From an uncultured Bacteroidales bacterium (lineage in GTDB: Bacteria > Bacteroidota > Bacteroidia > Bacteroidales > UBA4417), in contig CAWDHU010000015.1 of the NCBI GenBank assembly GCA_963802185.1, positions 657,781 to 721,780 on the forward strand: a DNA stretch of 64,000 nucleotides, written 5' to 3'. Below the pieces are notes generated by a model that did not search any database, was not told the DNA's origin, and saw nothing but the letters and a program-made list of their open reading frames with translations. A program made the position numbers and the translations under genes. Of this stretch, positions 12,441 through 29,428 are shown in pieces (the stretch's first letter is position 1; each line of letters opens with the position of its first letter).

Positions 12441-12814
12441 GGGGCTGACCGGTTTTGACAGCAAGGACAGTGGGATTGTAAGCATGCCGGGACTTTGAGT
12501 GAATGGCCCGCTAAAACCAAATACTCACGCCAACTAAATGGCAACAATTACGATTACGCATTAGCCGCTTAATCACAGTATTAACCTGCTAATTGTCCTC
12601 CGGGAAGCCTCGCCATCCGGCGTTCCGCTAAAGGGCATCGAAAAGGGAAGGATAAGGTTGCCGGAGTCCTGACGGCAGCTCGAAAACCAAAGGGAATAAG
12701 GCAAGGATTGGGTGGCTTTTTGCCGGTTCCTGCCCGACAATCAACTAGAAGCTAAGCATGTAGAAAGCGGTTTTGCTGCTTGTTTGGACCCGGGTTCGAC
12801 TCCCGGCAGCTCCA
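12441..12814 (+). ncRNA. ssrA: tmRNA (SsrA)
   Basis: The 5' ggggctg pairs with the 3' cagctcc acceptor stem. There is a T-arm ggttcgactcc and an internal tag reading frame ggc aac aat tac gat tac gca tta gcc gct taa (GNNYDYALAA stop). Confidence 0.9.
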
Positions 12815-12838
12815 CAAACAAGAAACAAAAATGTAGAT

Positions 12839-13057: not shown

Positions 13058-14416
13058 CTAAAAGATCAAACTAAACACAGTTTCCTTTCCCGGAACCGAC
13101 CGTACCTGAAGACTTCCACCATGAAGCCGCATAATTTGTCTGGAAAGGCTCAAACCAATACCTGAGCCGTTTTCTCTGGTGGTAAAGAACGGAACAAAAA
13201 TCTGTTCCAGAATTTCATCCGGAATTCCAGGGCCATTGTCGATTACCCGGATCTCGGGGCGATGCTCAGAATTAAACCCGGCAATTACCTGGATTTTACC
13301 TTCCGGGTTCTTTTCGTTGGCTTGCAAAGCATTTTTTGTTAAATTGATAAGCACCTGCGAAATCAGGTTTTCATCAGCGAAAAGCTCCATTTCCGGAGGG
13401 TTGACGGTTACAGTCAGTTTTATTATTTCACTGTTTTCGAGCGAAGTATACAAAACTTTAATCCTTGAGATAAGTTCTTCTACCCGGAAGATTTTCTTGT
13501 CAGGTTTTGGAAGCCGGGTTAGTTTCCTGTATGACTCAACGAACAACATCAGGCCATTTCCTTGTTCTTTAATGACACTCAAGCCTCGCAGTGTAGTCTG
13601 TATGGTTGTTTCGGTTACTTCTTCCGGAAGAGCGGGTCGCCCATCGATCATGAAAAACTGGCATAGACTTTCAGAGAGTGACGTGATTGGGGCAATCGAA
13701 TTCATAATTTCGTGCATCAGTACCCGAATTAGTTTCATCCACGAATCGAATTCTTTTTCATCCAGTTCATTCCGGATATCCTGAATCGTAAGTAAAATCA
13801 ATTCATTATCCTTTGTTTTGAATGAGGTCGCCTTTAATCGATAGTTGCATAGATTCCCCGTTCACTGTAGTAACAGAAACTAATTTCTGCTGAAATGGCT
13901 GAATATTCCTGTATGGACTGAAAGAGGTTACGGTTAACTCTTTCCAGTTGATTGATGTGGGTGAGCACATCAACTCCCAACATTTTCTTTGCAGCCGAGT
14001 TGGCATGAAGTACAAATCCCTTTGTATCGAAAGTCACGATTCCTGTACCCACGTGTTCGAGCAAGGTTTGAAAATATTGTTCCTGTTGACTGCTTTCAAT
14101 CTTTAACTGCTGAATTTGTTTATTGACTTTGTTGAGGCCCTCATAGATTTCACGGATCGGTTTGTCTGTAATATTTGTTGGAAACGTAAGCATCGAGTCC
14201 TCATTTTGAACCGATTCCAGGAAATAGCTTATTTTTCGATTTGTCGAATTCAGATAAATGACCAGGTTGAAAATCACAATTATGACCAGAACAATGCACA
14301 AAAAAATCAAGATTGTCCGATTGGCCGGAAGCCAGCAAAAAACCGGCGATCAGGCTAAATAAAACAATCAGTATAATCCTGAAAATGATTTGAAAATAGA
14401 AGTTTCGTCCGATCAT
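13058..14416 (-). pseudogene. Sensor histidine kinase (TM-PAS-HisKA-HATPase), frame-disrupted
   Basis: One kinase is split over four overlapping ORFs (14416-14201, 14310-13834, 14015-13806, 13801-13058). It has an H-box [11 protein letters not shown] and a G-box DNGPGI...GSGIGLSL. One shift maps to an A7 run at 14300-14306. The start overlaps the RR stop (ATGA). Confidence 0.75.
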
Positions 14417-15777
14417 TGTCCCGATTTTTTTATCTTGTTATAAAGTGTCTGCCTTGTAATTCCAAGCTGGTCAGCGGCAGCGCTAAGGTTTCCATTGTTT
14501 TTTTCAATGGCAAGATTGATCATCCGTTTTTCCATTTCCTCAAGGGTAAGTTCTGTTTCGTTTGTTCTATCCGAAAAAACCTGCTTCATGAAAAAATCAT
14601 CGGCTTTCAAGACATTTCCTTCACTCAAGATGACAGCTTTCTCAATGGTATGCTGCAGTTCGCGGATATTTCCGGGCCACGAATATTTGAGCAGTTTATC
14701 CTGAGCCTGCTGGTTGATTTTCAGACTGGGTTTGCTGTATTTTGAGGAATACTTCTTCAGGAAAAAATCGGTCAGCACCAGTATGTCGTTTCCGCGTTCG
14801 CGCAGTGGCGGAACTTCAATCTGTATGGTGTTGATCCGGTATAGCAGGTCCTCGCGGAATAATCCTTCGTGTACCATGCTTTCCAGTTTTTTATTGGTGG
14901 CGCAAATCAGCCTGATGTCAATCGGGATGGTTTGATTGGAACCGATTCGTGAAATCTGTCGGTTCTGGATAGCAGCCAGTAGTTTTGCCTGAAGATGAAA
15001 AGAAAGATTGCCAATCTCATCCAAAAAAAGACTGCCTTTATCGGCAACTTCAAATTTTCCGGGTCGGTTTTCGCGGGCATCGGTAAACGCGCCCTTCACG
15101 TGACCAAATAATTCGCTTTCAAACAAGGTTTCGGCGATGGCACCCATGTCAACACTTACTAATACTTCATGCGAACGTTCAGACAATCGGTGAATCTCGT
15201 GGGCAATCAATTCTTTCCCGGTTCCGTTCTCTCCGGTAATCAGTACATTGGCATCGGTTTTAGCCACTTTCCGCACCAGATTCAGCATCTGCATCAGTTG
15301 CGGTGACGAGCCAACAATAAATTTTTGTTCGCGGTTTATTTCCGTTTTCAGTCCCTTCTCTTTTTCCTTCAGCTGGCTCACTTCCTTCTTCGACCAGTTG
15401 AGCTGAAGGGCTGATTTCAGGGTTGCCAGTAATTTGTTATTGTCCCAGGGTTTCAGGAAAAAATCGGTTGCCCCCATCTTCAATGCTTTCACGGTCAACT
15501 CAATATCGCCAAAAGCGGTAATCATGACAACCGAAATCTCAGGATTTGATTCTTTGATTCGTCCAAGCCAATAAATACCTTCATTGCCGGTATTTATTCC
15601 TGCATTAAAATTCATGTCGAGAATAACCAGGTTATATTCTTTCTTCCGCAGTTCTGTCGGAATCCGATTGGGATCGGAAAGCGTAGTGACGGTTTGAAAT
15701 TCAGGAGTCAGGAAAATCTCCAATGCACTTAAAATACTCTTGTTGTCGTCAACAATCAGAATGTTTCCTTTTGCCAT
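14413..15777 (-). CDS. Sigma-54-dependent response regulator (REC-AAA+-Fis HTH, NtrC family)
   Basis: Receiver domain (IVDDN...ILDMNF), Walker A GENGTGKE, sigma-54 contact loop GAFTDA, and a C-terminal HTH AADQLGITRQTLYNKIKK. It is intact at 454 aa. Confidence 0.9.
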   Translation of the reverse strand: MAKGNILIVDDNKSILSALEIFLTPEFQTVTTLSDPNRIPTELRKKEYNLVILDMNFNAGINTGNEGIYWLGRIKESNPEISVVMITAFGDIELTVKALKMGATDFFLKPWDNNKLLATLKSALQLNWSKKEVSQLKEKEKGLKTEINREQKFIVGSSPQLMQMLNLVRKVAKTDANVLITGENGTGKELIAHEIHRLSERSHEVLVSVDMGAIAETLFESELFGHVKGAFTDARENRPGKFEVADKGSLFLDEIGNLSFHLQAKLLAAIQNRQISRIGSNQTIPIDIRLICATNKKLESMVHEGLFREDLLYRINTIQIEVPPLRERGNDILVLTDFFLKKYSSKYSKPSLKINQQAQDKLLKYSWPGNIRELQHTIEKAVILSEGNVLKADDFFMKQVFSDRTNETELTLEEMEKRMINLAIEKNNGNLSAAADQLGITRQTLYNKIKKSGQ

Positions 15778-15917
15778 TTTTTTGATTTAAAGGCTAATCT
15801 GATACGAAAAGCCGGGTTTCTATCAGGCGATTTTAGTTTTTTGACTTTTTAGAGTATTCAAAGGTAATTGGCTTTCTCTCCAAAATCAATAGAGTGTCAA
15901 ATCTTTATACAAACCAT

Positions 15918-15934
15918 TGTCAATTATTTTAACT
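15918..15934 (+). promoter_or_regulatory. Candidate UAS half-palindrome (TGTCAA-N5-TTAACT) for the adjacent RR
   Basis: It resembles TGTCAA-N5-TTGACA at 24588 and sits 54 nt upstream of the -24/-12 motif. Extra TGTCAA/TTGAC half-sites occur at 15895 and 15964. Confidence 0.45.
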
Positions 15935-15988
15935 CAGGCAAAGTCGTTGGCATTCTAAGTTGTTGACTGACAATATGTTTACGATTTT

Positions 15989-16004
15989 GGCATTATTCTG
16001 GCAC
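15989..16004 (+). promoter_or_regulatory. Sigma-54 (-24/-12) promoter of the exporter operon
   Basis: TGGCATTATTCTGGCA has GG and GC at the spacing of the consensus TGGCACG-N4-TTGCW. Confidence 0.6.
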
Positions 16005-16179
16005 ATTCTTTTCAAATATGCAGAAGAATGAAACGAACGCTTGATTTTTGCAAGGGAACGCGGTTATGGGAGTGAGCCCAAAGGAAGATGGAATAGGAAG
16101 AACGAGGGCCGGAATCCGAAGAAAATATTTGAATAACGCATTTCGGGGCCGGAATTGTAGCTTCAAATTTTTTTACGTG

Positions 16180-17438
16180 ATGGGAATGGATAGAATCTTA
16201 GAAAAGAAAAAAGGCCTGAGACCAAGACAAATCATCTGGATAGCCGGAGGATTGGCATTCGCCTTTTTGTTGTACAAAGTAATTTTTGCTGAAACCGGCC
16301 CAACCTTCAGGGCTGAAAAAGACAAGCTAACCATCAGTACAGTGGAAGACGGCTTGTTTAACGACTACATCACAGTAATTGGCCAGGTTGAACCAATCAC
16401 TACTATTTATCTGGATGCTATCGAAAGTGGGCAGATTCAGGAACGTTTCATCGAAGAAGGATCGATGGTTCAGAAAGGCGACGTGATTCTTCGCCTCGAA
16501 AACCGCCAGTTGTATCAAACCATCCTGAACAGTGAAGCTGCTCTGGCCGAAAAGGAAAACTACCTGCGAAATACGCGCATCAGTTTCGAAACAGAGTTGA
16601 TACAGTCGCGCAAAAATATACTTGACAGCCGGTACCGCCTGAACCGTAAAAAACGTTCGTTCGAGCAGAACAAAGCTCTTTTCGACGAACAGCTGATTTC
16701 GAAAGAAGATTATCTGCAGGCCAAAGAAGATTACGAATATGAAGAGAATATGCTCGAAATCAATAAAGTGAAAGCCAAAAACGATTCACTGATCCGGTTG
16801 ACCTCGATGCAATCACTGGAAACCGACCTGGTAAAAATGCGTCAGATGTTGGTGCTGGTACGCGAACGACTCGATAACCTGAACGTGAAAGCTCCGGTTA
16901 ACGGTCAGCTTGGGAATGCTTGAATGCCGAAATCGGACAGCGAGTCAATGAAGGCCAGCGCATTGGACAAATTAACGTACTCGATAATTTTAAAATCAAT
17001 GCCCTGATTGATGAACATTACATCGACCGCGTGGTTCGGGACCTTCCGGCTACTTTAGACCGCAATGGGACCAATTTCAACCTGAAAGTCAGGAAAGTAT
17101 ATCCTGAAGTGCGCAATGGTCAATTTAAAATCGATGTGGTATTTGATGGCACAACACCCGATAATATCCGCACCGGCCAAAGCTACCACATCAAGCTTGA
17201 ACTGGGCGAATCGGGCAAAGCAGTATTACTGCCACGAGGCGGATTCTTCCAAAGTACCGGGGGTCAATGGGTGTTTGTGCTGAACGAAGACGGAACCGAG
17301 GCAACCAAACGCAATATCAGGATCGGCAAACAAAATCCACAGTATTACGAAGTACTTGAAGGCCTCAAAGCCGGTGAACAAGTCATCACTTCAGGGTACG
17401 AAATGTTTGGAACGAACGACAGGATTGTGTTGAAGTAG
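16180..17438 (+). pseudogene. HlyD/MacA-type periplasmic adaptor subunit, one frameshift near 16915-16925
   Basis: ORFs 16048..16923 and 16920..17438 together form one adaptor: TM anchor, coiled coil, and a C-terminal beta domain (PVNGQLGN / NAEIGQRVNEGQRIGQI). The likely start is MGMDRILEKKKG at 16180. Confidence 0.75.
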
Positions 17439-17591
17439 CAGAAAAGACAATGGGCAGAGAGTTCATAACTTGAATCCGGTAGTAGTAATGATAAGATAAA
17501 ACTTTGTATATTATTTTCATAACTTAAATACATTTAGCAAACATTAATTTGTAATTTTAACGAGATAAAACTTCTAATAAAAATAAAAACA

Positions 17592-18291
17592 ATGATCAGA
17601 ACAGTAAATTTAAACAAAGTGTTCCGCACCGAAGAGATTGAAACCAGTGCGTTGAACGAGGTGAACCTTCACATACAAAAGGGCGAATTTGTAGCCATCA
17701 TGGGACCTTCGGGTTGCGGCAAATCAACTTTACTAAATATTATCGGCCTGTTGGACAATCCAACTTCAGGTGAAGTATTATTTCGACAGTCAGGAAGTAG
17801 GCGATTTTAAAGAACGCAACCGCACTTTGCTCCGAAAAGGCAATATTGGCTTCGTGTTCCAGAGTTTTAACCTGATCGATGAGCGTAACGTGTATGAAAA
17901 TGTGGAACTTCCGCTCATCTACCTGAAATTGAGCGCTAAAGAGCGCAAGGAAATGGTCGAAAAAGTGCTGGAACGTATGAAAATAAGTCACCGGAAGAAA
18001 CACTTCCCGCAACAATTATCCGGAGGACAGCAGCAGCGTGTGGCCATTGCGCGTGCAGTGGTTGCCAATCCAAAACTGATTCTGGCCGATGAGCCAACCG
18101 GAAACCTCGATTCGAAAAACGGTCTGGAAGTGATGAAACTGCTCACGGAACTCAACCGCGAAGGAACCACCATCGTGATGGTGACACACTCCATGCACGA
18201 TTCAGAATTTGCACACCGGGTGGTGAATCTGTTCGACGGGCAAATTATTACTGAGGAAGTGAAAAAGCAGATGGGAGAAATGCTGGTCTAA
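17592..18291 (+). pseudogene. ABC transporter ATP-binding protein (MacB/LolD type), one frameshift near 17768-17772
   Basis: Walker [10 protein letters not shown] lies in ORF 17592..17810. The signature LSGGQQQRVAIARA and Walker B LILADEPTGNLD lie in ORF 17770..18291. Confidence 0.8.
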
Positions 18292-18362
18292 ATAGTCTTG
18301 AATGAACATTATACGTGATTAACTGAAGCCCAGGATTTTGAAAACCCAAACGATATCAGTCC

Positions 18363-20727
18363 ATGCAAAACATATTTAAATCAACTTACCGGAATTTCAT
18401 CAGGAAACCAACCACCAACCTTATCAACCTGATTGGGCTGGCAGTGAGTTTAGCCTTGGTTATCGTATTGTCGGTTTATTCGTACAGCGAACTGACCACC
18501 GACAATTACCATAAGAACGGCGATCGGGTTTATCTTTTCGCCGATATGAATGGTCAATTGCATATGCCTGCAATATTAAAAGACCAGATCGATCTGAATA
18601 TTCCGGAAGTCGAATCAACCGTAAGGATGGCCAGCACATGGGAAACTCCTGTATTCCAGGTCGGAGATCGTGAACCGATAACTTCGGATCTTGTTTTTGC
18701 AGACGAGGATTTCTTCCAACTATTCACCTACCGACCGGTTGAAGGCAATCTCGAAACTTCGTTGAAAGAACCCATGACCATTGTTCTTACCAAAACTCTT
18801 GGCCAAAAAACTTTTTGGAAACGAACCAGCACTGGGCAAAACGGTGAAGCTGAACAACGATAAAGAACTAACAGTTTCAGCAGTTATTAATGAGCCTGAA
18901 GCCAATTCAAGCCTGTCTTTCAGCGCGTTAACCTCAATTGCCACGCGCAAAATTGTTCTTCCCACTGATGGCGAGTTTACTGATTGGGGATGGTGCAGTT
19001 TCCTGACATTCACACTTTTAAAAGAAGGAACTAACCCGGATGAAACTGCGAAAAAGATCATCGCTCTTTTCCCGAAGAACGATCAGGAGAAATACTCTAA
19101 ATTGAAACTGAATCCATTTGGGAAAATCTATTTTTCCAAATTTGCACTTGGTGGAACCAATTATCTGCATTGTGGCGACAAACGAAAAGTAATGATCCTG
19201 ATGATGGTGGCAGCACTGGTACTGATGATTGCATTGGTCAATTTTATTAACATTTCTTCTTCACAATGGATGGAGAAAATCAGGCAAACAGGTGTTCAAA
19301 AGTGTTTGGCGCTGGTAATGTGAACATCCTCATAAATTCACTTTCCGAAGCCTTTATTCTGTTTTTGATGTCGCTTTTTTTTGCAATCCTGATCGTTCGG
19401 GCTCTATTCCCATTCATCAGTAGCATTACCGGAATTCAGTTCAATATTCAATTGCTTTACAAGCCTTCTTTCCTGATGGTTTCCATTGCCGTAACTTTTA
19501 TCCTTAGTATGGTTTTCAGTATTATTCCAGCCTTACGCATCTCCTCGTCGAAAGCAGTTGACAACCTGAAGAAAACAGTTGCAAGGGGTTCTAAAAATTC
19601 CTTTTCCCAGGGACTTCTGGTGACTACCCAATTTGTAATTGCTATTGTGCTAATCGCTTTTACCATTTTGGTTCAAAAGCAGGTTAACTTTGGAAGTAGC
19701 AAACTGGGATTTTATCAGAAAAACATAATAGGTATCAAGTTAACACCACAGTTGAACGGGAAAAAAGAGGTGCTCAAAAAGTTGCTACAGGACAAACCTA
19801 CTGTTACAGAAATCTCGTTTACTCAATATTACCCGGGAAACATGCTTTCGAACTGGAGAACAAATCAGGAAATAAACGGCGTGAGAAAAGAACTCAGTTT
19901 TGATACATTTAATGCTGATGCCAACTTCTGTTCAATGATAGGATTACAACTTATACAAGGACGCTTTTTCTTAGAAGACCTGGCTACCGACCAGCATAAA
20001 ATGATTGTGAATGAAAGCTTCCTTCGGGAAAACAAAATAGACAATCCGATTGGCGCTAAATTCATGATGGGCTTTGGTATGGATGCAGGCCTTTCCGAAA
20101 TAATCGGTGTAGTAAAAGATTTTCATTACAAAGCGGTCAACCAGCCCATCATAGCGTTGGTCATACAAAATGAACCGGATGCATCCTATTGCCTTGTCAA
20201 ACTGCAAACCAACGATTTCACTTCACTGCATACAACCATTCAGGATATCAAAAAAGTAACCAAAGACCTTTCTCCTTCTTTTCCGGTCGAAATCACCTTT
20301 TTCGATCAGGCTATTGAGAATATGTATAAATCGGAATTACAATTTCAACACACCTTTTCACTGTTTGCCGGAATGCGCTATTGTGATCTGTTGCATGGGA
20401 ATTTTCGCCATGTCGCTGTTTGCTTGTCAGCGCCGGATCAAGGAGATCGGCATTCGTAAGGTAAACGGAGCCCGTATTTCAGAAGTAATGACAATGCTGA
20501 ACCGCGACTTTGTGAAATGGGTTGCCATTGCCTTTGTAGTTGCCACGCCCATTGCCTGGTTCATCATGAACAAATGGCTCGAAAGTTTTGCCTACAAAAC
20601 TGACTTGAGTTGGTGGATTTTTGCCCTGGCTGGAATACTGGCCCTGGGAATTGCGCTATTGACGGTGAGCTGGCAAAGCTGGAAAGCAGCGACAAGGAAC
20701 CCGGTGGAAGTATTGAGGTATGAGTAG
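18363..20727 (+). pseudogene. MacB-like FtsX-domain ABC permease (~788 aa), three frameshifts
   Basis: Four overlapping ORFs (18363-18863, 18781-19323, 19266-20459, 20314-20727) read as one permease. The shifts are near 18800, 19298-19301 (an A4 run) and 20367-20382. The C-terminal FtsX motif is EIGIRKVNGA. Confidence 0.8.
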
Positions 20728-20750
20728 CCATTCAAATTAAAAATGAAATT

Positions 20751-23139
20751 ATGAAGAAAGTTAGAAATATTTTCAGGCATCTTATTCGCCGGGGATTGAC
20801 CACTTCGTTTGTGTTGATCAGTTTTACGTTGGCCTTTAGCTGTTGCATTTTAGTGTACCTTTTTGTTGCCGATGAGTTGTCATTCGATAAGCACAATGCA
20901 AATTTTGCCCATATCTACCGACTAAACCTACAGTCGAAAGACAAAACTTATAAGAGTTGTTCGTTCCCGGCTGTTTTCGAGGAAAAGTTCATCAAAATTC
21001 CGGGTATTGAAAAGTACGCAAGGCTTCAGTCCTATATGGGGGAAAATTTTATTTCGATTGATAATACAACTTTTACAGCAACCAGTTTCTTGTTTGCCGA
21101 TCCAGAAATCCTTGATATTCTTCAATTTGATTTCCTTATGGGCAACCCTAAAGAAGCTTTGGCGAAGCCGTTGAATGTTATAATCAGCCAATCGACTGCG
21201 CAAAAATATTTTGGCAATACCAATCCAATAGGAAAGATAATCAGGCAGGACGATCAGGATTTTACGGTTTCAGCAGTTGTGAAAGACCTGCCCAGGCAAT
21301 CGCATTTTACCATGAATTTCCTTGCCCCTGTGGCGAGCTATCAGATAAAAAACGACGACTTGCTTACAAAATGGTACATACAAGCTTTCCGTTTCTATTT
21401 GCTGATCCCGGATGGGGTAAACAAGAAGGAAGTAGAAACCCAATTAGCCAATCTTTATGCCGAAGGGAATGGAATTGACAAAAACAAGCGGGAGTTTGAT
21501 ATGTACCTGGAGCCTTTAAGTGATATTCATCTGAAGTCGGTTGGCACACGTTGGGATAACGCCATTAAAGGCGATATTCAAGTAGTTTATGGATTGTGTA
21601 TCGTTGCGTTGCTCATTCTGGGAATAGCCATTGCCAACTACATCAATATGCTGACCGCCGATTGCCGGCGAAAAGCAAAAGAAACCAGCATACAACGGGT
21701 GAATGGAGCTTCAGGATATAACATTATTGCCGATCAGGTTCTTGAAACATCGATTTTCCTTCTGTTTGCCTTTCTGTTGTCAATGGTATTAACTTTTCAG
21801 ATGTTGCCGGTTGTCAATAACTTAAGCGGCAAATTATTGTCGGTTAATTGGTCGGTGCTGATACCCGGCCTGGCTTTGCTTGCCACGTCCATCATTTTAT
21901 CTGCCATCTATCCAATACTATTCCTGAATTCCATAAAACCTGTTGAAGCCCTTAAAAACCAGATCAACATCATCAAGGTTAAAAGTCAGCAAAAACAGCA
22001 ATGGTTAAGAGGCGCTCTGGTTACCTTCCAATTGGCCATAGCCACCCTGTTAATTGCTTCAACTATTGTGATCAACAACCAGCTACAGTTGGTTATGAAT
22101 GCAAAAACAGGCTTCGATAAAGAAAATACCCTTATCGTTTACAACCCGTATACTGAAGGTATGAATGAACGTTATGATCTGTTCAGGCAAAAACTGAGCA
22201 ATGTGCCCATGATAAAAAGTATCGGTGTTGCACAAAATGCCCCTGGCAATACCATCAATAATTTTTCTCCTGCCTGGTTGCCTGATCAGAAAAATCAAAA
22301 AGCTGACCTTGGCCAAATTTCCGTTGACTACGATTTTCTGCAAACAATAGGTGCAAAATTTGTGGCTGGCCGCAATTTCGACATCAATGTTGCAAGCGAT
22401 AAAACAACAGGGATGATCATTAACCAATCAGCCGTTAGAGCGCTCAATTTAACCGATCCTATAGGTAAAAAAATTGTCGTCCAGAACAATGTTGATACTC
22501 CCAACAATGAACTTGAGGTAATTGGAGTGATCGAAGACATGCAATATTTCACCCTGCGTGAAGCTTCGAAACCAGTAATGTACTATATCAAGGATTGGGG
22601 CAGGTATGAAATTGCCTTGAAACTGGGCAGCGGTAATTATTCTGCAACATTAAAGCAGATTGAAACCATCTGGAAAGAAATAGCTCCTCAATGGCCAATT
22701 CAGCTACCAGTTTTTGGATGAAAGAATCAACAATAATTACAGATCGGAAATAAACACGGGAAAAATAATAACCGGGCTGTCAGGCATTTCCATTTTCCTT
22801 TCCATTCTGGGAATATTGGGTATGATCCTGATTACCATACAGCAACGCACCAAGGAGATTGGAATCCGCAAGGTGAATGGTGCCCAAATCTCCGAAGTAT
22901 TGATGATGCTGAACAAAGACTTTGTAAAATGGGTAGCCATTGCTTTTGTAATTGCCACGCCCATTGCGTGGTATGCTATGCACAAATGGCTCGAAAACTT
23001 TGCCTACAAAACTGAATTGAGCTGGTGGATTTTTGCCTTGGCAGGATTAATTGCATTGGGAATTTCATTGCTTACTGTGAGTTGGCAAAGTTGGAAAGCG
23101 GCCACAAGGAATCCGGTAGAGGCGTTGAGATATGAATAA
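20751..23139 (+). pseudogene. MacB-like FtsX-domain ABC permease paralog (~796 aa), one frameshift near 22701-22705
   Basis: ORFs 20751..22721 and 22714..23139 join as ...WPIQ/YQFLDERINNNY. The C-terminus is almost identical to that of the preceding paralog (EIGIRKVNGAQISEV...AATRNPVEALRYE). Confidence 0.8.
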
Positions 23140-23278
23140 CCGAGTATTTAATTTCAATGATGAAGTAATTTTAATATGTTTTCAGGTATTCATCAACCGA
23201 TCGAACATGAATTCGCATGAGTTGCCACGAAAGGCTTAACTCGATTCCGGAAAATACTCTTTTCTCGATTTAATGAAA

Positions 23279-23305
23279 GGCTGTCATTTTGTGACGGTCT
23301 TTTTC
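23279..23305 (+). terminator. Rho-independent terminator of the exporter operon
   Basis: ggctgtca-ttttg-tgacggtc followed by ttttt. Confidence 0.65.
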
Positions 23306-23369
23306 CTTTTCACGCTCCTTCTGCAACTTGATTCTTTCTTTAGCCAGCTGTAAATAGTGTCAGGGTAAT

Positions 23370-23386
23370 TGCCAATTTATTTGACA
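23370..23386 (+). promoter_or_regulatory. Candidate UAS (TGCCAA-N5-TTGACA)
   Basis: Imperfect palindrome located 53 nt upstream of the -24/-12 motif. Confidence 0.5.
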
Positions 23387-23439
23387 CATTCAAACCTCAG
23401 AAGATTTACAATACACTGATATTGAGCATATAAAGCTTT

Positions 23440-23455
23440 TGGCATGAATCTGGCA
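23440..23455 (+). promoter_or_regulatory. Sigma-54 (-24/-12) promoter
   Basis: TGGCATGAATCTGGCA lies 80 nt upstream of ATG 23536. Confidence 0.6.
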
Positions 23456-23535
23456 TCCAGAAATACTAAAAGACAAAATCGAAACAAAATTTAGGTTTCA
23501 AAAAAATAACTTATTTATCTTTAACACTCAAAATC

Positions 23536-24342
23536 ATGAACACAATAACCAATTATCAGGAATCAGAAAACTTAGGAACAATCAGAAAATCTCTTTTGGC
23601 ATTACTGATGATGAAAAATAAATTGATTTTTGTATTAACATTTCTGATTTCAGTAGTGATTGTGAGGATTCTTATGATCAGATACTTTATTGATATTAGT
23701 CCCATAGTTGTTGCTATAGCTTTTATATTGATTCTACGTGATAAGTTTTCGGACTTACGTTTACGGCTGTTTAATCCTTTGTCATTCATTGTAATTATAT
23801 TAATTACTTATGTTGTATTGTTTTTAACGATTTCTAATTCAGTCCTACTTTAAATTCAGTGAATTTTCGTTCATTACTGATAAAGGTACAATAATAGGAT
23901 ATTTTTTGTCTGCAATAATTATGTGGGATTTACAGAGGAAACTGCCTGGCGTGGTTATTTATTTAGCAAATTAAAAGATTTGACCTGGTTTCAAATTACG
24001 ATAATTATTAACCTGATTTGGGCAATCTGGCATATCCCATCTCATTTTAATGTCCTTGAGGGTCATATCTGGATAAGTTTTCCTTTATTTATTGTGACGT
24101 GTTTTGAGCTTGGAATCATTATGCAATATTTGAGAGTAAAGACAGATTCTGTTATTCCATGTATTCTTTTTCATGCATTATTTATATTTCCATTAATGTT
24201 GGCTGGTTTAAAAACTAAAGTTTTATATTTAGGGAGTTTTCCATACATTATTATGTTACTGTTGTTGTTGCCAATAACTATTTATTGCTATAGAGCAGGA
24301 CAAAGAATCCATGAAAAACAAAACAACAGGGCAAAACGATAG
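23536..24342 (+). pseudogene. CPBP-family (CAAX/Abi-like) intramembrane glutamic protease, two frame disruptions
   Basis: The N-terminal TM part is ORF 23536..23853 and the catalytic part is ORF 23923..24342. The catalytic part carries EExxxR (FTEETAWRG), FxxxH (AIWHIP) and a later FHALF. The linking segment reads only in another frame (KFSEFSFITDKGTIIGYFLSAII, 23852-23922). Confidence 0.65.
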
Positions 24343-24494
24343 CACAATGCTTAATTTCGCGCCAAACTAACCCCCAAAAAAGCTTTGGCTAAGCCCTTGA
24401 TGTTATCCTAAACCGACCGGCCATGAAGTCGAATGATTTGCCGCGACAGGCTCAACCCTATTCCTAGAAATAATCTGACCTCGAATTAATGAAA

Positions 24495-24522
24495 GACTGT
24501 CACTTAATGACGGTCTTTTTTT
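24495..24522 (+). terminator. Rho-independent terminator after the CPBP gene
   Basis: gactgtca-cttaa-tgacggtc followed by ttttttt. Confidence 0.65.
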
Positions 24523-24587
24523 CTTTTCACGCACCTTCTATTACTTGATTCTTTCTTTAGCCATCTGTAAAATATCACCAGGGTAAT

Positions 24588-24604
24588 TGTCAATTTATTT
24601 GACA
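24588..24604 (+). promoter_or_regulatory. Candidate UAS, perfect palindrome TGTCAA-N5-TTGACA
   Basis: tgtcaatttatttgaca lies 53 nt upstream of the -24/-12 motif. Confidence 0.55.
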
Positions 24605-24657
24605 CATTCAAACCTTAACAACTTCGCAACACACTGATAATGAAGAAATAAAATTTT

Positions 24658-24673
24658 TGGCATGAATCTGGCA
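24658..24673 (+). promoter_or_regulatory. Sigma-54 (-24/-12) promoter
   Basis: TGGCATGAATCTGGCA lies 81 nt upstream of ATG 24755. Confidence 0.6.
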
Positions 24674-24754
24674 TCCTGAAATACTACAAGACAAAATGAA
24701 AACAAACAACAGGTTTAGAAAACAAAAACATATTAATCTTAAACCCTTAAAATC

Positions 24755-27233
24755 ATGACAACAACAATCAATTATCATCAATCAGAAAACCGGGGAACAA
24801 TCAGAAAATCTCTTTTGGCATTACTGATGATAGTTTTGTTTACAACACTGGCTTTCAGTCAGAAACTTATCACAAACCGTAAGAGGCACTATACTTGATG
24901 CCGACAGTAAATTGCCGCTGATAGGCGCTACAGTTATAATACCTGGTACCGACCCGTTAATTGGTGCGACAACTGATTTAGACGGTAAGTTCAGACTGGA
25001 AAACATACCAATAGGCAGAATTACAATCCAATTGTCCTACATGGGTTACGATCCTGTAACAATTCCAAACATTGAAGTGAATTCGGGTAAGGAGGTCGTT
25101 TTAAATCAAAGCATGCAGGAATCGGCAATAAAACTGGATGAAATTGTAGTATCGGGCCGAAAAAAAGGAGAAGCAATAAACGACATGTCTCAGTTAAGTT
25201 TACATTCCATTACACTTGAAGAAACTAAACGTTTTACCGGGGGAATGGACGATCCTGCCCGCGTAGTTTCCAGTTTTGCAGGAGTAGCCAGTACGCCCAA
25301 TGGCAGCAGCGATATTATAGTACGCGGAAATTCACCCAAATACATGCAATGGCGTTTGGAAGGAGCAGAAATTTCGAGTCCTTACCATATGGATGATCAA
25401 AATGCTTCGTTTGGAGCCCTTACAGCCCTGAATAATAATTTATTAGCCACCTCCGATTTTTATACAGGGGCTTTTTCGTCAGAATATGGCGATGCATTAT
25501 CGTGTGTTTACGATGTAAAACTCCGGTCGGGAAATAACGAAAAGTTTGAAGCAACCGGCGGGATTGGCTTAATGGGTACAGAACTTACCCTTGAAGGTCC
25601 GCTTAAAAAGGGATATGCAGGCTCATGCCTGTTTAATTACAGGTACTCTACAATTTCGCTGATTAAAGAGCTGGGGCTGGTGGATGTGCCCGGAGGTGTG
25701 AATTACCAGGATGCAACCTTTAAAGTAGTTCTGCCTACTAAAAAAACAGGTACTTTTTCCATCTATGGGTTGGGTGGTTTAAGTGGTGTTTCAATGGAGA
25801 ATATGGGGCCAACAGGCCTGTCAACACCAGGCAGACCAGTCACAAACGCTCTTGTCAGCCGAGATTTTTACAAGGCAAATTATCTGGCTAATCTTGGAAT
25901 GAACCATGTTTTATCGCTTAACGAAAAAAGCTTTATTAAAACGTCATTTAATTATTCGGGAACTGGTATGGACGATGATATTTATGAGAAGGATACAATA
26001 AAAACATATAACAATATTGATGAATTTACTGGTGATTCCATTTCTCCCAGAACACAAATGCTTCAAGGCAGGATTGTGAATTCAGCAATCAGGGGGGCAA
26101 CTACTTACAGCAATAAAATCGATGAAAAAAATAAAATTCAAATAGGTACAAAATACACGCTTTATAACTTCAATTACAATCAAAACATCTATAGCAGTGA
26201 GGTAGATTCCATGGTTAACGTAAATGACTTTAAAAATAATTTAAGTACAATAAATAATTTTATAAACTGGAAACACAGCTTTAATGATAAAATGGTTGTT
26301 GTGGCAGGTATACATAACATGAATGTTTTAAACAAAAATATAAGCACGATTGAACCAAGATTAAGTATTAACTGGAATATGAATGAAACCAATTCGCTGC
26401 ATGCAGGATACGGTATGCACAGCACCACAGAAAGTATACATAATTATTTTACAAAAATCCCGCAAGCAGATGGCAGTTTTATTGAGCCAAATAAAAATCT
26501 CGGATTGTTAAAAGCCCATCATTATGTATTGGGCTATGAAAAACGCTTCACGGAAAATTTAGTGGGGAAAATTGAGGTTTACTACCAGTCGCTTTACAAT
26601 TTGCCGGTCGAAAATAACGACAGCAGTTATTATTGCACCATTAACGAGGGCATCGATTTTAAATATGTTGAACTGGTTAATAAAGGCACAGGTAAAAACT
26701 ACGGCGTGGAAATGTCCATCGAACGGTTTTTTGATAATAATTTCTACTTTTTGCTAAATGGATCGTTATTCGATTCGAAATACAAATCCTTGGAAGGAGT
26801 GTGGCGAAATACCCGGTATAATAACAAATATATTGTAAATATTTTAGGTGGAAAAGAGTTTAAAAATCTTGGTAAAAAACAAAACCAGACCCTGGCAGTA
26901 AATACGAAAATATTCTTCGAAGGTGGCCAACGGTATATTCCGCTTCTGAGAGATGCCCAGGGAAATGTAGCTGTTGAACCCGAAAACGACAGATATTTTG
27001 ACTATAGCAAAGCATATAATGATAAACTTGACAACATATTTTACCTGAATTTATCGGTCAGCTACAAGTTAAATAAACCCAGGGCTACACATGAAATTTT
27101 TCTGGATCTGATGAACCTTACAAACAATCAGGCCAGAATGACTGAATATTATGATGAGAGCAAACCTGACAAAGTTGGCTATACTACTTCATTTGGATTT
27201 TTCCCAAACTTAATGTACCGGGTATATTTTTAA
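24755..27233 (+). pseudogene. TonB-dependent receptor (CarboxypepD_reg-like domain, plug, barrel) with a frameshift just after the signal peptide (~24866-24870)
   Basis: ATG 24755 encodes MTTTINYHQSENRGTIRKSLLALLMIVLFTTLAFSQKL and then stops. The main ORF (listed as 24912..27233) is open further upstream as SQTVRGTILDADSKLPLIGATVII. The C-terminus NLMYRVYF is typical of a TBDR. Confidence 0.8.
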
Positions 27234-27263: not shown

Positions 27264-28544
27264 ATGAAAATTTTCCTTATTTCTTTACTGATTCTTATTC
27301 CCGGTATTCTTACTGCCCAGGAATGTAAGATTGATTTGCGCAACTTGGCACAACCGGATATTACTATGAGCCAGTTAAATAAATTCGGTCAGAGCAAAAT
27401 TTTTAAAATTGTTTTATCTGAAGGTTTTGATACCATAGCCAATAAGGATATTATCAATCAGTTATCGCAATGGTTTTTAAATCAGAACTCCCAGATTGAC
27501 ATAATAAATGTTAACGACGTTAAAAAGCTAGAGGATAGCTGCCACTATCTGATTATTGGCTTAACACGCAAACTAAATGATCTTTCGGTTTTTGATTTAC
27601 CCGTAAAGATTAACGATAACAAATGTACCCTTGGAACAATTGAACTTACAGAAGATTGCGATGCAATAACAGTGACTAACGAAAAGGCAAACTGTACAGC
27701 TGTAATTGGTAATTCATACGAAGCGTTAAGGTATATGTCATCCGGGCGTTTTCTGGGATTATATGATTATTATATTCTCAGGAATAATAAAATGGGCTAT
27801 CTGGGTAATTTGAAGGAAAATAAATTTACAGCAGATAGCCTTGTGGATTTGGCACTTATCCGAATTAAAAACTACACTCAAACAATTGATAATAAATATA
27901 TAGAATCTTGTTTTTCGTGTAAATACAAAACGGTTAGCCAGTTTCAGGGTTCGATAGATGCCTTAATAGATTCATTTGATAATTTCTGCAGGCTTTATGA
28001 AGTAGAGAAACCATCCCAAAAACTAAAATTCTTTATACATAGTGATCAACTGGAGATAAATATCGTCAGCGGTGACCCAAAACCCGGTTCGACCGGAGGA
28101 ATCGTGATCGACAGTCTGATTCATACAGTTGGGTTAGATGAGGAGCTGTTAACACATGAAGGAGTTCATTATATATTTAATTCCAATTTAAAGAGTCCAA
28201 ATGCTTTTTTTAACGAAGGTATTCCTTTGTCTTTTGCGTTGTTTCAACATTCTGAGCGTATCACGAATGATTGTAAATTAATTCAAGACAATTTAGAAAT
28301 AGAAGATTTAGTAACCGGAAAAACAGGATTCTGGAACGCACCATATAAAAACGGGCAATGTTTATCATATCCAATATCAGGCCTTTTTGTAAAATTCTTA
28401 CTGGATAAATATGGGATTGAAAAGTTAAAGAGATATTATCAATTTTCGGATGTAGCTGAAGGCTTTAAGGCTGTTTATAATGCAGAACTCCCAATAATGG
28501 TAAAAGAATGGAAAAATTATGTGCTGAAAAATATTTCTAGTTAA
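27264..28544 (+). CDS. Secreted HExxH protein, peptidase-MA-like (putative zincin)
   Basis: Signal peptide (LLILIPGILTAQ). Motif THEGVHYIF followed 15 residues later by NEGIPLSFA, which resembles the HExxH...EG arrangement of MA-clan peptidases. Confidence 0.45.
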   Translation: MKIFLISLLILIPGILTAQECKIDLRNLAQPDITMSQLNKFGQSKIFKIVLSEGFDTIANKDIINQLSQWFLNQNSQIDIINVNDVKKLEDSCHYLIIGLTRKLNDLSVFDLPVKINDNKCTLGTIELTEDCDAITVTNEKANCTAVIGNSYEALRYMSSGRFLGLYDYYILRNNKMGYLGNLKENKFTADSLVDLALIRIKNYTQTIDNKYIESCFSCKYKTVSQFQGSIDALIDSFDNFCRLYEVEKPSQKLKFFIHSDQLEINIVSGDPKPGSTGGIVIDSLIHTVGLDEELLTHEGVHYIFNSNLKSPNAFFNEGIPLSFALFQHSERITNDCKLIQDNLEIEDLVTGKTGFWNAPYKNGQCLSYPISGLFVKFLLDKYGIEKLKRYYQFSDVAEGFKAVYNAELPIMVKEWKNYVLKNISS

Positions 28545-28574
28545 AAAGAAAGAAAATTAAATAACAAGATTGCC

Positions 28575-29291
28575 ATGAAAATCGAAACAATTAAAACGAA
28601 AGGTTTTGCAATTTCAGTTATTGCATTTCCGGTAATGTTGCTCGCAGGGTTTTTAATGCACCCTAATCTCCTGAAGCTGGAGGCGCTGCAAACGGTTGAA
28701 CAACTGGTTGGAAGGTTTCATAATCAGCCTATATACCACATCGGGCACTTAATTGTAATGTTTACCGTCCCTGTCATAATGATAGCTTTGATTAGTTTCA
28801 TGAATGTATTGAACGGAACAGGCAAAAAGTTAGGTTTTTGGGGTGGAATAATAGGTTTGTTTGGAGCATTCATCTTAGCAGTCGATAAAGGCGCTTTATG
28901 TTTGGTGCTTTCGGCATTCGATACCTTGCCGGAAGATCAGTTTAAGGAGTTCGTTCCATTCCTCAGTGTTATTGTAAACAAAGCAGGAATGCTTTGGGTG
29001 GTTTGGCTGTTGCCATTATTGCCGGTTGGAGCAGCCATACAGGCATTCGGGCTGATGAAAGAGAAATTTATCAGCAAATGGCAGGGCGTATGTATTATTG
29101 TCGGCCTTCTGTTGTTGAACAACCCCGATATAGAATTAATCAGCTCCATCGGCGCTTTGCTGATGTGCGCGGGATATATTCCGTGGGGTGTTAGAATTCT
29201 TCAGGGAAGAATGAAATGTTTCTCAATAACTTGCCCTATATACGACACAAAAAAAGATAGAAACTTTAAATGCCTGAAGCCATGTGGATAG
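28575..29291 (+). CDS. Polytopic membrane protein with a Cys-rich C-terminal tail
   Basis: About 6 hydrophobic segments. The tail is CFSITCPIYDTKKDRNFKCLKPCG. Confidence 0.45.
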   Translation: MKIETIKTKGFAISVIAFPVMLLAGFLMHPNLLKLEALQTVEQLVGRFHNQPIYHIGHLIVMFTVPVIMIALISFMNVLNGTGKKLGFWGGIIGLFGAFILAVDKGALCLVLSAFDTLPEDQFKEFVPFLSVIVNKAGMLWVVWLLPLLPVGAAIQAFGLMKEKFISKWQGVCIIVGLLLLNNPDIELISSIGALLMCAGYIPWGVRILQGRMKCFSITCPIYDTKKDRNFKCLKPCG

Positions 29292-29428
29292 TTATTGGAA
29301 TAGTTACCATTTGGACGATAATTAAACGAAAGCAAAAAGGGAAAAGTGATGGATTAAACCACACTGTTGACAGCGTCAAAGCCTGACAGAAAGAAACCAA
29401 TGTTCACAATTTTATAAACAAAACGACA

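Follow-up and report, generated by a model that had tools for sequence, protein, structure and literature searches.

The window analyzed here, 64 kb of DNA from an uncultured Bacteroidales bacterium, contains a gene for an NtrC-family response regulator that is divergent from an efflux-pump operon, and three predicted sigma-54 promoters with palindromic candidate activator sites upstream. The promoters face the pump operon (promoter P1), a gene for a CPBP-type protease (P2), and a gene cluster headed by a TonB-dependent-receptor-like gene (P3). We consider it probable, from comparison of this DNA with that of relatives, that the locus is the sigma-54 regulon of one two-component system. Conservation of P1 across a family, in the predicted role of promoter of the pump, is strongly supported by the comparison, and the regulatory logic is of the textbook NtrC type.

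The window was scanned with the motif TGGCATNNNNCTGGCA, allowing no more than one mismatch. Three matches were obtained (15988 to 16003, 23440 to 23455, and 24658 to 24673), all of them exact and on the + strand, in comparison to 0.28 expected in shuffled sequence; three matches were reached in none of 100 shuffles. A first-pass annotation of this DNA had reported TGGCAT-N4-CTGGCA three times with GG and GC at the -24/-12 spacing, which agrees with the scan except that its position for the first copy (15989 to 16004) was off by one base. Compared with the sigma-54 consensus TGGCAC-N5-TTGCW, the sequence TGGCAT-N5-TGGCA keeps GG and GC 10 nt apart and carries one mismatch, at position 13. The palindrome TGTMAA-N5-TTKACA, again with up to one mismatch, was found at 15895, 23370, and 24588, each time upstream of one promoter; three such matches in 64 kb are not significant by count (1.47 expected), and the significance lies in their co-location with the promoters. 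The composite pattern TGYCAA-N5-TTRACW-N50-56-TGGCAT-N4-CTGGCA, put forward in the same annotation, occurs exactly three times in the window (15918 to 16003, 23370 to 23455, and 24588 to 24673), and the gap between element and promoter is 53 nt in all three, not 54, 53, and 53 nt as had been given. The positions of the single palindrome assigned to each promoter were correct, but P1 has two tandem sites, A and B, with starts 23 bp apart. Site B had been described as degenerate; its right half, TTAACT, is the form conserved in orthologues. The features of the regulator and P1 region are as follows.

13058 to 14416, - strand: sensor histidine kinase gene (Pfam PAS_8 and HATPase_c), frameshifted.
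14413 to 15777, - strand: NtrC-family response regulator gene (receiver domain, AAA+ domain, and Fis-type helix-turn-helix (HTH); Pfam, GAFTDA loop), intact.
15859 to 15866, - strand: sigma-A-type -7 box TACCTTTG (TAnnTTTG), directed toward the activator gene; no other TAnnTTTG occurs in the three upstream regions.
15895 to 15911, + strand: site A of P1, distal candidate activator site TGTCAAATCTTTATACA, one mismatch, starting 93 nt upstream of TGGCA.
15918 to 15934, + strand: site B of P1, proximal candidate activator site TGTCAATTATTTTAACT, starting 70 nt upstream of TGGCA.
15963 to 15977, + strand: YTGA box TTGACTGACAATATG, in which TTGA starts 25 nt and CTGA 21 nt upstream of TGGCA.
15988 to 16003, + strand: promoter P1 TGGCATTATTCTGGCA (-24 GG, -12 GC) of the efflux-pump operon, from the motif scan and orthologue conservation.

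When the C of the -12 element is set as -12, the predicted centers of site A, site B, and the YTGA box fall at about -111, -88, and -50, respectively, and this predicted spacing is that of a classical enhancer. The alternative of sigma-A promoters of the TAnnTTTG type, named in the first-pass annotation, was checked upstream of the three genes, and no such box was present on the + strand upstream of any of them. The one box on the opposite strand, TACCTTTG, is a candidate promoter of the regulator-kinase operon, and the orthologue alignment shows its counterpart, CAAAGNTA, at the left margin. Because this box adjoins site A, autoregulation of the activator gene is suggested. A CRP/FNR-type reading of the palindrome was dropped, as the dyad is TGTCA-N7-TGACA and not TGTGA-N6-TCACA. 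The looser pattern TGGCAY-N5-TKGCW has two further matches in the window, at 7150 to 7165 (+ strand, prolyl oligopeptidase) and 9515 to 9530 (- strand, GntP permease); both lie within coding regions, lack an upstream palindrome, and are probably due to chance.

The regulator encoded at 14413 to 15777 had been called a sigma-54 activator with a GAFTDA loop and a Fis-type HTH, and its Pfam domain set is complete (Response_reg, 8e-20; Sigma54_activat, 1e-66; AAA_lid_14; HTH_8, 1e-14). GAFTDA is among the tolerated functional variants of the GAFTGA loop (PMC4641369). The best NCBIfam matches are all below their cut-offs (PrsR, 403 versus 502.6 bits; AtoC, 383 versus 714; ZraR, 350 versus 760; NtrC, 341 versus 559), and on these scores the activator is not an equivalog of NtrC, AtoC, ZraR, or PrsR. 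Its HTH, LSAAAxQLGITRQTLYNKIKK, is nearly invariant over 88 loci. The topology of the kinase, judged from intact orthologues in two relatives (L043 and L084), comprises two transmembrane (TM) helices separated by a loop of about 5 residues, followed by the PAS and HATPase_c domains. In L043, a full-length rpoN gene encoding the AID, CBD, and DBD domains of sigma-54 (7549 to 9006, + strand) lies 1.6 kb beyond the orthologous kinase gene, separated from it by a class II aminoacyl-tRNA synthetase gene alone.

For the comparison, genomes were scanned with the activator protein, which yielded 80 loci (1.38 Mb in total, 59 to 98% identity) from metagenome-assembled genomes (MAGs) of Prolixibacteraceae, Marinilabiliales, and Bacteroidales. 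On the operon side of about 50 loci, the strict motif TGGCAY-N5-TKGCW had no second match within as much as 10 kb; it usually lay 137 to 142 nt from the activator ATG, facing the divergent operon. A relaxed composite was present at the divergent pump promoter in 63 of the 80 loci, with both half-sites in 50 and with activator identities reaching as low as ∼57 to 60%; block shuffles of the same 1.38 Mb gave an expectation of about 0.25 such sites. In 50 of 52 orthologous promoters, one TGTMAA half-site begins 92/93 nt upstream and another 69/70 nt upstream. Many orthologues have a perfect palindrome at site A (for example, TGTCAAATATTTTGACA), and site B is conserved as TGTCAATTATTTTWAC. A YTGA box of the CTGATA or CTGATT type starts 24 to 25 nt upstream of TGGCA in many orthologues as well as in both copies of the repeated cassette described below; it may be a bending site of the IHF/HU type or an additional protein contact. 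The -24 half is nearly invariant and the -12 half weaker, and loci that failed the strict pattern kept the palindromes and TGGCAY-N5 with a degenerate -12 half. This cis-architecture persists with activator orthologues of as little as ∼55 to 60% identity, before operons of the order TolC-HlyD-FtsX-FtsX-ABC. A frequency of the composite at background level upstream of unrelated genes, the other alternative raised by the annotation, was not seen in the related DNA, where it was confined to the pump promoter and to small exported-protein genes of the same locus. These results support a reading as sigma-54 promoters served by the adjacent NtrC-type activator, as had been proposed: the composite in 63 of 80 loci, the fixed offsets, and the nearly invariant HTH all argue for it.

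Promoters P2 and P3 lie within a direct repeat of ∼420 bp (∼23195 to 23611 and 24400 to 24830). Alignment of 23100 to 23640 with 24310 to 24860 gave a mean column identity of 84%, and blastn gave 83% for the promoter and leader part. Each copy contains a 3' element with a kinase gene fossil, a terminator hairpin, the palindrome, the promoter, an A-rich 5' untranslated region (UTR) of about 80 nt, the ATG, and the first 25 codons. Since both promoters belong to one repeat they provide one independent observation, so the earlier count of three promoters with a shared upstream palindrome stands as a description, whereas the number of independent cases in the window is two. The elements of the repeat are listed here; the part from the activator sites to the first codons is referred to as the cassette.

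23195 to 23251, - strand: antisense fossil of a histidine-kinase C-terminus (SGIELSLSWQLMRIH..VRSV), left part of the first repeat copy (tblastn E=1.4e-5).
23276 to 23305, + strand: terminator hairpin and T-run, ending the pump operon (from sequence).
23309 to 23611, + strand: cassette copy 1 (repeat alignment).
23349, + strand: TGTAAA half-site of cassette copy 1.
23370 to 23386, + strand: palindrome TGCCAATTTATTTGACA of cassette copy 1, one mismatch.
23416 to 23425, + strand: element CTGATATTGA of cassette copy 1.
23440 to 23455, + strand: promoter P2 TGGCATGAATCTGGCA.
23536 (ATG), + strand: A-rich 5' UTR, ATG, and first 25 codons of cassette copy 1, MNTITNYQESENLGTIRKSLLALLM.
24408 to 24466, - strand: antisense fossil of a histidine-kinase C-terminus, left part of the second repeat copy (tblastn E=1.5e-8), with 83% identity over 18 aa to the kinase of the window itself.
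24492 to 24522, + strand: terminator hairpin and T-run after the CPBP gene (from sequence).
24526 to 24830, + strand: cassette copy 2 (repeat alignment).
24566 to 24582, + strand: site A' TGTAAAATATCACCAGG of cassette copy 2.
24588 to 24604, + strand: perfect palindrome TGTCAATTTATTTGACA of cassette copy 2.
24634 to 24643, + strand: element CTGATAATGA of cassette copy 2.
24658 to 24673, + strand: promoter P3 TGGCATGAATCTGGCA.
24755 (ATG), + strand: 5' UTR, ATG, and first 25 codons of cassette copy 2, MTTTINYHQSENRGTIRKSLLALLM.

The half-site offsets of the cassette are 91 to 92 and 70 nt, and the 13-bp stem of the terminator in the repeat is conserved across eight copies. Folding of the 3' element supported the terminator hairpin alone, and folding of the leader with the first codons gave no significant structure (z = -0.15 for the single sequence; consensus of -3.9 kcal/mol with one compensatory pair). 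A search of Rfam over 13 to 26 kb, with E values up to 1, returned one chance small RNA hit and no known RNA family on the cassette or the 3' element. Variable columns among the first 25 codons numbered 13 at the first codon position, 11 at the second, and 10 at the third, in what is a small sample. Because there is no excess at the third position, the shared N-terminus looks conserved as nucleotide sequence, or merely young, rather than conserved as a peptide. The same pattern, with third positions varying no more than first and second ones, could point to a further, post-transcriptional level of control common to all members, for instance an enhancer of translation initiation or a site recognized by an RNA-binding protein or small RNA. 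AGAAAAC and CAGAAAA motifs are repeated in the cassette leaders and first codons (for example, at 24716 to 24810 of the window). They were also seen in a homologous small-protein gene (L023, 16820 to 16900, - strand), which apparently has a TAnnTTTG-type promoter instead.

Metagenomes were scanned with TGTCAA-N5-TTGACA-N48-58-TGGCAY-N5-TGGC, and 17 loci were recovered. The 11 with enough flanking DNA all fell within the regulator/pump locus, four were short contigs with the cassette or with a second class of promoter, and two were unrelated or uncertain. Class I consists of ten cassette copies on nine loci (L081 to L084 and L087 to L091, with two in L084), a module of ∼300 bp with different genes behind it. 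It precedes a TonB-receptor-like gene in L081, L083, and L084b, a CPBP gene in L084a and L090, a gene for a 211-aa lipoprotein in L082 (only MKTT in common), one for a 221-aa putative outer-membrane protein ending in Phe in L088 and L087, and one for a 161-aa exported repeat protein in L089/L091; in close relatives, at least six different envelope genes stand behind it. Wherever context was available (L081, L083, L084, L089/L091, and L090), the copies adjoin the regulator/pump locus. L084 is syntenic with the window, with the same gene order lacking TolC and with its reading frames intact. The FtsX gene is followed directly by cassette and receptor gene in L081 and L083, without the CPBP gene, and by cassette and CPBP gene in L090. 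The cassette gene of L089/L091 and the kinase gene that accompanies an 88%-identical activator are convergent.

The class II loci (L085, L086, L093, and L097) encode a 55 to 57%-identical activator and, divergently, a TolC-like protein and then HlyD, behind TGTCAATAATGTTGACA ... TGGCACGGTGGTGGCA; where the locus is long enough, the FtsX permeases and the ABC ATPase follow HlyD. A short contig (L092) holds a class II promoter and its first gene, and L094 encodes a 68%-identical activator and has two perfect palindromes. A high-GC metagenome contig (L095, 603 to 687, - strand) carries the same composite, TGTCAAGTAACTTGACA ... TGGCACGATTCTGGCA, before a gene for a PadR-like regulator, and no activator gene is adjacent. 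The open reading frame (ORF) after the PadR-like gene presumably resembles the N-terminal prefix of ADOP/FtsX-type permeases, and the divergent gene appears to encode an alpha/beta-hydrolase. This composite may be due to chance, or may reflect a pairing of sigma-54 with FtsX permeases beyond Bacteroidota.

Scanning of both sides of the 80 loci revealed six more composite promoters (L011, L015, L022, L023, L027, and L039). They lie just beyond the kinase gene, in convergent orientation and in the same layout as in L089/L091, with half-site offsets of 92 and 70 nt, and drive genes for small exported proteins of 137 to 203 aa that start MKTT..QKTEN. In more than 15 genome loci, the genuine 3' end of the kinase gene is matched by the kinase-fossil DNA segment of the repeat. 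The cassette thus probably derives from a sigma-54-driven small exported-protein gene beside the kinase gene. On the simplest reading, we infer that the promoter and 5' end of that gene would have been duplicated, along with a fragment of the 3' end of the kinase gene, and then reused before other envelope genes. A reading of the repeat as a miniature inverted-repeat transposable element was set aside on the content of the unit, with no search aimed at terminal inverted repeats or target-site duplications, as the fossil of a gene 3' end, the terminator, the promoter, and the codons fit segmental duplication or recombination better.

A bolder proposal, which we offer tentatively and hold to be doubtful, is that the unit of ∼300 to 420 bp is a portable regulon-recruitment cassette, spread by recombination, that plugs arbitrary envelope genes into the regulon. 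In its favor, the junctions between cassette and gene are variable, lying ∼4 codons into the shared reading frame in L082, ∼25 codons into it in most copies, and behind a free-standing 47-codon ORF in L081 and L087, and the CPBP gene is flanked by direct repeats and is present or absent among close relatives. In L081 (3767 to 3910, + strand) and L087 (- strand) the cassette ATG opens this free-standing ORF, MNTADNYQKSENRGTIRKSLLALLMIVMFTVIGELINSFCQKADYNG, which is followed by a T-run; about 250 nt farther downstream comes the main gene, with an MKK signal peptide of its own. The ORF could encode a leader peptide or attenuator, or could be the remnant of an earlier fusion. A search with the 47-aa sequence returned two small ORFs only, that of the window itself and a 91%-identical 47-aa protein (P0001) in ENA.

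On the basis of these comparisons, we propose the following model. A membrane-anchored PAS kinase with almost no periplasmic loop would phosphorylate the NtrC-family activator, in keeping with the NtrC paradigm. Activator dimers would then bind two 17-bp TGTMAA-N5-TTKACA sites, 23 bp apart and ∼111 and 88 nt upstream of the predicted start, the YTGA box at about -50 might help the DNA to bend, and the AAA+ ring would contact RNA polymerase-sigma-54 at TGGCAY-N5-TGGCA and open the promoter. P1, whose architecture is conserved in the family, would be the ancestral promoter, predicted to drive an exporter composed of TolC, a HlyD adaptor, an ABC ATPase, and one or more duplicated FtsX permeases. 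The P2/P3 cassette would have been copied in the lineage of the window along with the kinase 3' scrap and fused to the CPBP gene and the TonB-receptor cluster; in close relatives it would have been fused to genes for small outer-membrane proteins and a lipoprotein, placing all of these envelope genes under one signal. The physiology is the weakest step: gene content suggests, as the most likely role, a response to envelope stress or to toxic peptides or amphiphiles that would induce efflux and remodel the outer membrane. Such a role agrees with what is described for sigma-54 in Flavobacterium psychrophilum (PMC9723704) and with the predicted enrichment of sigma-54 promoters at COG0577 permeases of Bacteroidia (PMC12316311).

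Several observations weigh against this model. No rpoN gene was seen in the 64-kb window. The -12 element of many orthologues is without GC (TGGTA, TAGTA, TGGAT, or TAGAA), which is unusual for sigma-54. The cassette has one full palindrome and otherwise only a half-site. In L020 (1 to 400, - strand), a cassette before the CPBP gene keeps a perfect palindrome and is without ∼45 nt that include the -24/-12 elements, which reflects either true loss of the promoter or faulty assembly of this nanopore MAG. The transporter scores below the cut-off of every named NCBIfam family. At least 12 frame-breaking indels (13837 to 24872) are present between 13.8 and 24.9 kb relative to L084, L020, L001, L081, and L083, and with the loss of TolC they indicate that the system may be inactive in this genome. 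The earlier proposal of one regulon, accordingly supported by comparison for P1, is narrowed in that P2 and P3 are duplicates and that membership of the CPBP and TonB-receptor genes is confined to a narrow lineage; elsewhere among relatives, the cassette stands before different genes.

The pump operon shows how far the locus is affected. Its description as a HlyD-ABC-FtsX-FtsX exporter operon was confirmed with Pfam (HlyD, ABC_tran, and FtsX with MacB_PCD twice), and it is laid out as follows.

16028 to 16075, + strand: TolC-family gene-start remnant (MKRT...) of 48 nt, MKRTLDFCKGTRLWE and a stop, recognized by comparison with L001.
16180 to 17438, + strand: HlyD/MacA-type periplasmic adaptor (Pfam HlyD_3 and Biotin_lipoyl_2; nearest NCBIfam model DarC, below cut-off), frameshifted at ∼16910 to 16923.
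17592 to 18291, + strand: MacB/FtsE-type ABC ATPase (Pfam ABC_tran; nearest NCBIfam model DarD, below cut-off), frameshifted at ∼17771.
18363 to 20727, + strand: duplicated FtsX/MacB_PCD permease 1, ∼790 aa (Pfam FtsX and MacB_PCD), with at least three frameshifts (18798, 19298, and 20373).
20751 to 23139, + strand: duplicated FtsX/MacB_PCD permease 2, ∼796 aa (MacB_PCD, 3e-27; FtsX; NCBIfam ADOP and DarB, below cut-off), with a frameshift at 22697.

The closest genome (L001, with a 98%-identical activator) has an intact operon of OEP/TolC-HlyD-ABC-FtsX and, at the position of the remnant, 1.7 kb of extra DNA encoding an OEP/TolC protein (OEP, 3e-51). The operon start ATGAAACGAAC is common to L025, L030, and the remnant of the window. 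A TolC-like gene, judged from N-terminal sequence only, heads many orthologous operons; L020 and L084 are also without it. In the window the TolC/OEP partner is reduced to the 48-nt remnant with the rest deleted, and it is possible that one is encoded elsewhere in the genome. The indels are mostly single-base insertions outside homopolymers, several of them supported by two to five orthologous loci each, and they affect the kinase gene (13837 to 13912 and 14307 to 14360, relative to L084, L020, and L001), the adaptor, the ATPase, both permeases, the CPBP gene, and the 5' end of the receptor gene. The indels spare the activator gene, the receptor gene beyond its 5' end, and the three genes that follow it, and the genes tested elsewhere in the window gave full-length domain matches. 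A truncated 47-aa ORF at 24755 to 24898 is a called protein (P0002) in the public assembly; the indels are therefore present in the deposited assembly. They represent either a local assembly error or pseudogenization.

That the locus of this genome is a decaying relic, with a working regulon in relatives only, is accordingly the alternative to be taken most seriously. The number and kind of the indels, their backing by orthologous loci, the near-complete loss of the TolC gene, the full-length domain matches of the genes tested in the rest of the window, and the truncated ORF in the public assembly all speak for it. Set against them, the 1.02-Mb assembly is probably a long-read one in which clustered indels could be local consensus errors, and similar indels occur in L020, which is a nanopore MAG; moreover, the activator and all cis elements are perfectly preserved, and L084 has the same gene order with intact frames. 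We regard decay as possible, and on the whole unlikely.

An improbable alternative is that P1 alone belongs to the adjacent activator and that P2 and P3 are served by a paralogous enhancer-binding protein encoded elsewhere, in which case there would be no single regulon. The two promoter classes do differ, in that the cassette has one perfect TGTCAATTTATTTGACA and a half-site and P1 has TGTMAA-N5-TTKACA together with TGTCAATTATTTTWAC, and several such activators are usual in Bacteroidota genomes (Flavobacterium psychrophilum has three; PMC9723704). The two classes nevertheless agree in half-site sequence, 5-nt spacer, offsets (92 and 70 nt), and YTGA box. The cassette is also physically attached to the regulator/pump locus wherever context exists, it carries a fossil of this kinase family, and an equivalent promoter adjoins the same two-component system in L011, L015, L022, L023, L027, L039, and L089/L091.

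We give very little credence to the view that TGGCA-N6-TGGCA is a direct-repeat operator, with transcription starting from sigma-A promoters and the palindromes serving an unrelated repressor. With TGGCA in place of TTGCW at -12, the motif does read as a direct repeat, and the -12 GC is lost in many orthologues as noted. Yet a near-invariant -24 TGGCAY with a weaker -12 at fixed spacing is the pattern of sigma-54; the motif always stands beside a sigma-54 activator gene and lacks a coding-strand TAnnTTTG upstream; and tandem sites ∼110 and 88 nt upstream form the classical enhancer geometry in a lineage that has rpoN.

Equally remote is the idea that P2 and P3 are alike only through recent segmental duplication, their elements having hitch-hiked without selection, for although ∼420 bp at 83 to 84% identity are common to both, including fossil, terminator, and first codons, the elements are conserved over 11 cassette copies (site A half, 0.98; site B, 0.97; YTGA, 0.98; -24, 0.98; -12, 1.00) in contrast to the spacers (0.78 to 0.80), and the same elements stand at the same offsets at the independently evolving P1. 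Furthermore, the P3 copy of the window (W3) is 87.8% identical to its orthologue in L084 (L084b) and 83.3% identical to its paralogue at P2 (W2). Orthologous copies being closer than paralogous ones, the duplication predates the split of the window and L084 lineages.

The genes behind the two cassettes of the window are the following.

23536 to 24342, + strand: CPBP (Rce1-like) protease gene (Pfam, 2e-16), frameshifted at 23834 and 23926.
24755 to 27233, + strand: TonB-dependent-receptor-like outer-membrane protein (Pfam; signal peptide, CarboxypepD_reg, putative barrel), frameshifted at ∼24869.
27264 to 28544, + strand: HExxH zincin-like protein (HEGVH motif, weak Peptidase_MA_2), intact.
28575 to 29291, + strand: 238-aa membrane protein without a family match, intact.
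29429 to 30697, + strand: 422-aa putative outer-membrane protein without a family match, intact.

The earlier label of CPBP intramembrane protease was upheld: PF02517 (Rce1-like) matched at 60.5 bits, above the cut-off of 22.4, and EETAWR matches EExxxR. The intact orthologue in L084 (269 aa) scored 63.5 bits (2e-17). CPBP/Abi proteins are associated with bacteriocin immunity. The label of TonB receptor fared less clearly, with a CarboxypepD_reg match of 7.6e-15 in its favor and a sub-threshold Plug match (19.6 bits versus 23.9, E=0.0014). No barrel model matched this protein, and its sole PDB match was the N-terminal domain of a TonB-dependent receptor; its orthologues in L081, L083, and L084 are 81 to 86% identical. 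For the zincin label, the HEGVH motif agrees and the Peptidase_MA_2 match is weak. Searches of PDB sequences returned nothing for the zincin-like and 422-aa proteins. The gaps between the receptor, zincin, membrane, and 422-aa protein genes are 31, 31, and 138 nt, and from this spacing the three genes at 27264 to 30697 are probably co-transcribed with the receptor gene. In a protein search of the 80 loci, the receptor, zincin, membrane, 422-aa, lipoprotein, and small outer-membrane proteins were found in the closest relatives only, and these genes are therefore not conserved neighbors of the system.

The best-known system of comparable design is NtrB/NtrC-glnAp2 (as well as AtoSC and ZraSR). 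The likeness extends to a regulator with receiver, GAFTGA-type AAA+, and Fis-type HTH domains, to tandem dyad sites ∼90 to 110 nt upstream of -24/-12 with a possible bending site between, and to a regulator gene divergent from the target with its own promoter beside the binding sites. The NtrC site is TGCACC-N5-GGTGCA, whereas the sites here are TGTMAA-N5-TTKACA; in addition, the targets are an efflux pump and envelope proteins rather than nitrogen assimilation genes, the kinase lacks a periplasmic sensor domain, and the regulator falls below the NCBIfam cut-offs. ZraPSR of Enterobacteria is similar as a sigma-54-dependent two-component system whose regulon takes in a small exported or periplasmic protein, the gene for which adjoins those of the regulators, and ZraR is among the best NCBIfam matches of the activator, at 350 bits and below the 760-bit cut-off. 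ZraS, unlike the present kinase, has a periplasmic sensor domain, and no pump is known in the ZraR core regulon.

The transporter resembles the type VII ABC tripartite pumps of the MacAB-TolC kind in its outer-membrane factor, HlyD-type adaptor, MacB/FtsE-type ATPase, and FtsX permease with a MacB periplasmic core. It differs from MacAB-TolC, DarBCD, DevBCA, and ADOP in three respects: its ATPase forms a polypeptide of its own, its FtsX permeases (∼790 aa) are duplicated, and the outer-membrane factor gene is deleted in the window. The nearest NCBIfam models (DarB, DarC, DarD, and ADOP) are far below their equivalog cut-offs. When tested as a darobactin exporter, the proteins scored 94 versus 700 for DarB, 70 versus 450 for DarC, and 199 versus 375 for DarD, all far below the cut-offs, and the window showed no genes resembling darA or darE. 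The BceRS-BceAB modules of Firmicutes likewise combine an FtsX-type transporter with an adjacent two-component system, which would control it here as it does in those modules; the kinase has in both cases two TM helices and virtually no extracellular loop. They differ in that the regulator here is a sigma-54 activator and not of the OmpR type, the kinase has a cytoplasmic PAS domain, and the pump is a tripartite Gram-negative one with duplicated FtsX/MacB_PCD permeases, not the 10-TM BceB type. The likeness to Bce-type modules is, by this comparison, one of functional analogy only.

The first-pass annotation had not recognized the combination as a described system. A link between sigma-54 and FtsX has already been reported, however: an in-silico survey (PLoS One 2025) describes predicted sigma-54 promoters enriched upstream of COG0577 FtsX-like permeases in Bacteroidia (PMC12316311). 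A second study links the sigma-54 regulon of F. psychrophilum (motif SM4) to envelope stress and exported proteins of unknown function (PMC9723704). In the passages searched of these two sources there is no mention of the activator, its binding site, the fixed enhancer geometry, the small exported-protein member, or the duplicated cassette. A term search of Francke et al. (2011) gave no match. Literature searches on sigma-54 with MacB or Bacteroides returned no experimental study, and no binding site for a sigma-54 enhancer-binding activator in Bacteroidota was found; the same is true in these searches of the site consensus, the fixed tandem geometry, the small exported-protein member, and growth by a copied cassette with a kinase fossil.

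The biology of sigma-54 has been little explored in Bacteroidota. The present analysis offers a complete and testable cis-code (consensus, 23-bp tandem spacing, offsets, intermediate box, and promoter) for a two-component system conserved across Prolixibacteraceae and Marinilabiliales, whose predicted targets are a MacB-type efflux pump and exported proteins of unknown function. The comparison also suggests a concrete route for growth of a sigma-54 regulon, in which a promoter-leader cassette is copied before new envelope genes and leaves behind a datable kinase fossil. With such a code, regulons could be predicted and many "hypothetical" envelope genes better annotated, and it flags a likely envelope-stress or resistance module. 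The cultured genera Draconibacterium, Mariniphaga, Sunxiuqinia, and Tangfeifania are represented among the related MAG loci, so experiments should be feasible.

The surroundings of the locus include a gene for tmRNA (12441 to 12815, + strand; tag peptide GNNYDYALAA) that directly adjoins the 3' end of the kinase gene. Only from ∼13040 on, just past the tmRNA gene, is the window syntenic with L001, L020, and L084; on that account the regulator/pump locus occupies a different genomic neighborhood here, perhaps as the result of a rearrangement or of insertion beside ssrA. On the far side, two paralogous zinc-type alcohol dehydrogenase genes (30802 to 31731 and 32376 to 33318, 50 to 61% identical) flank a DUF4386 gene, and the second copy is split by a frameshift near 32700 to 32900.

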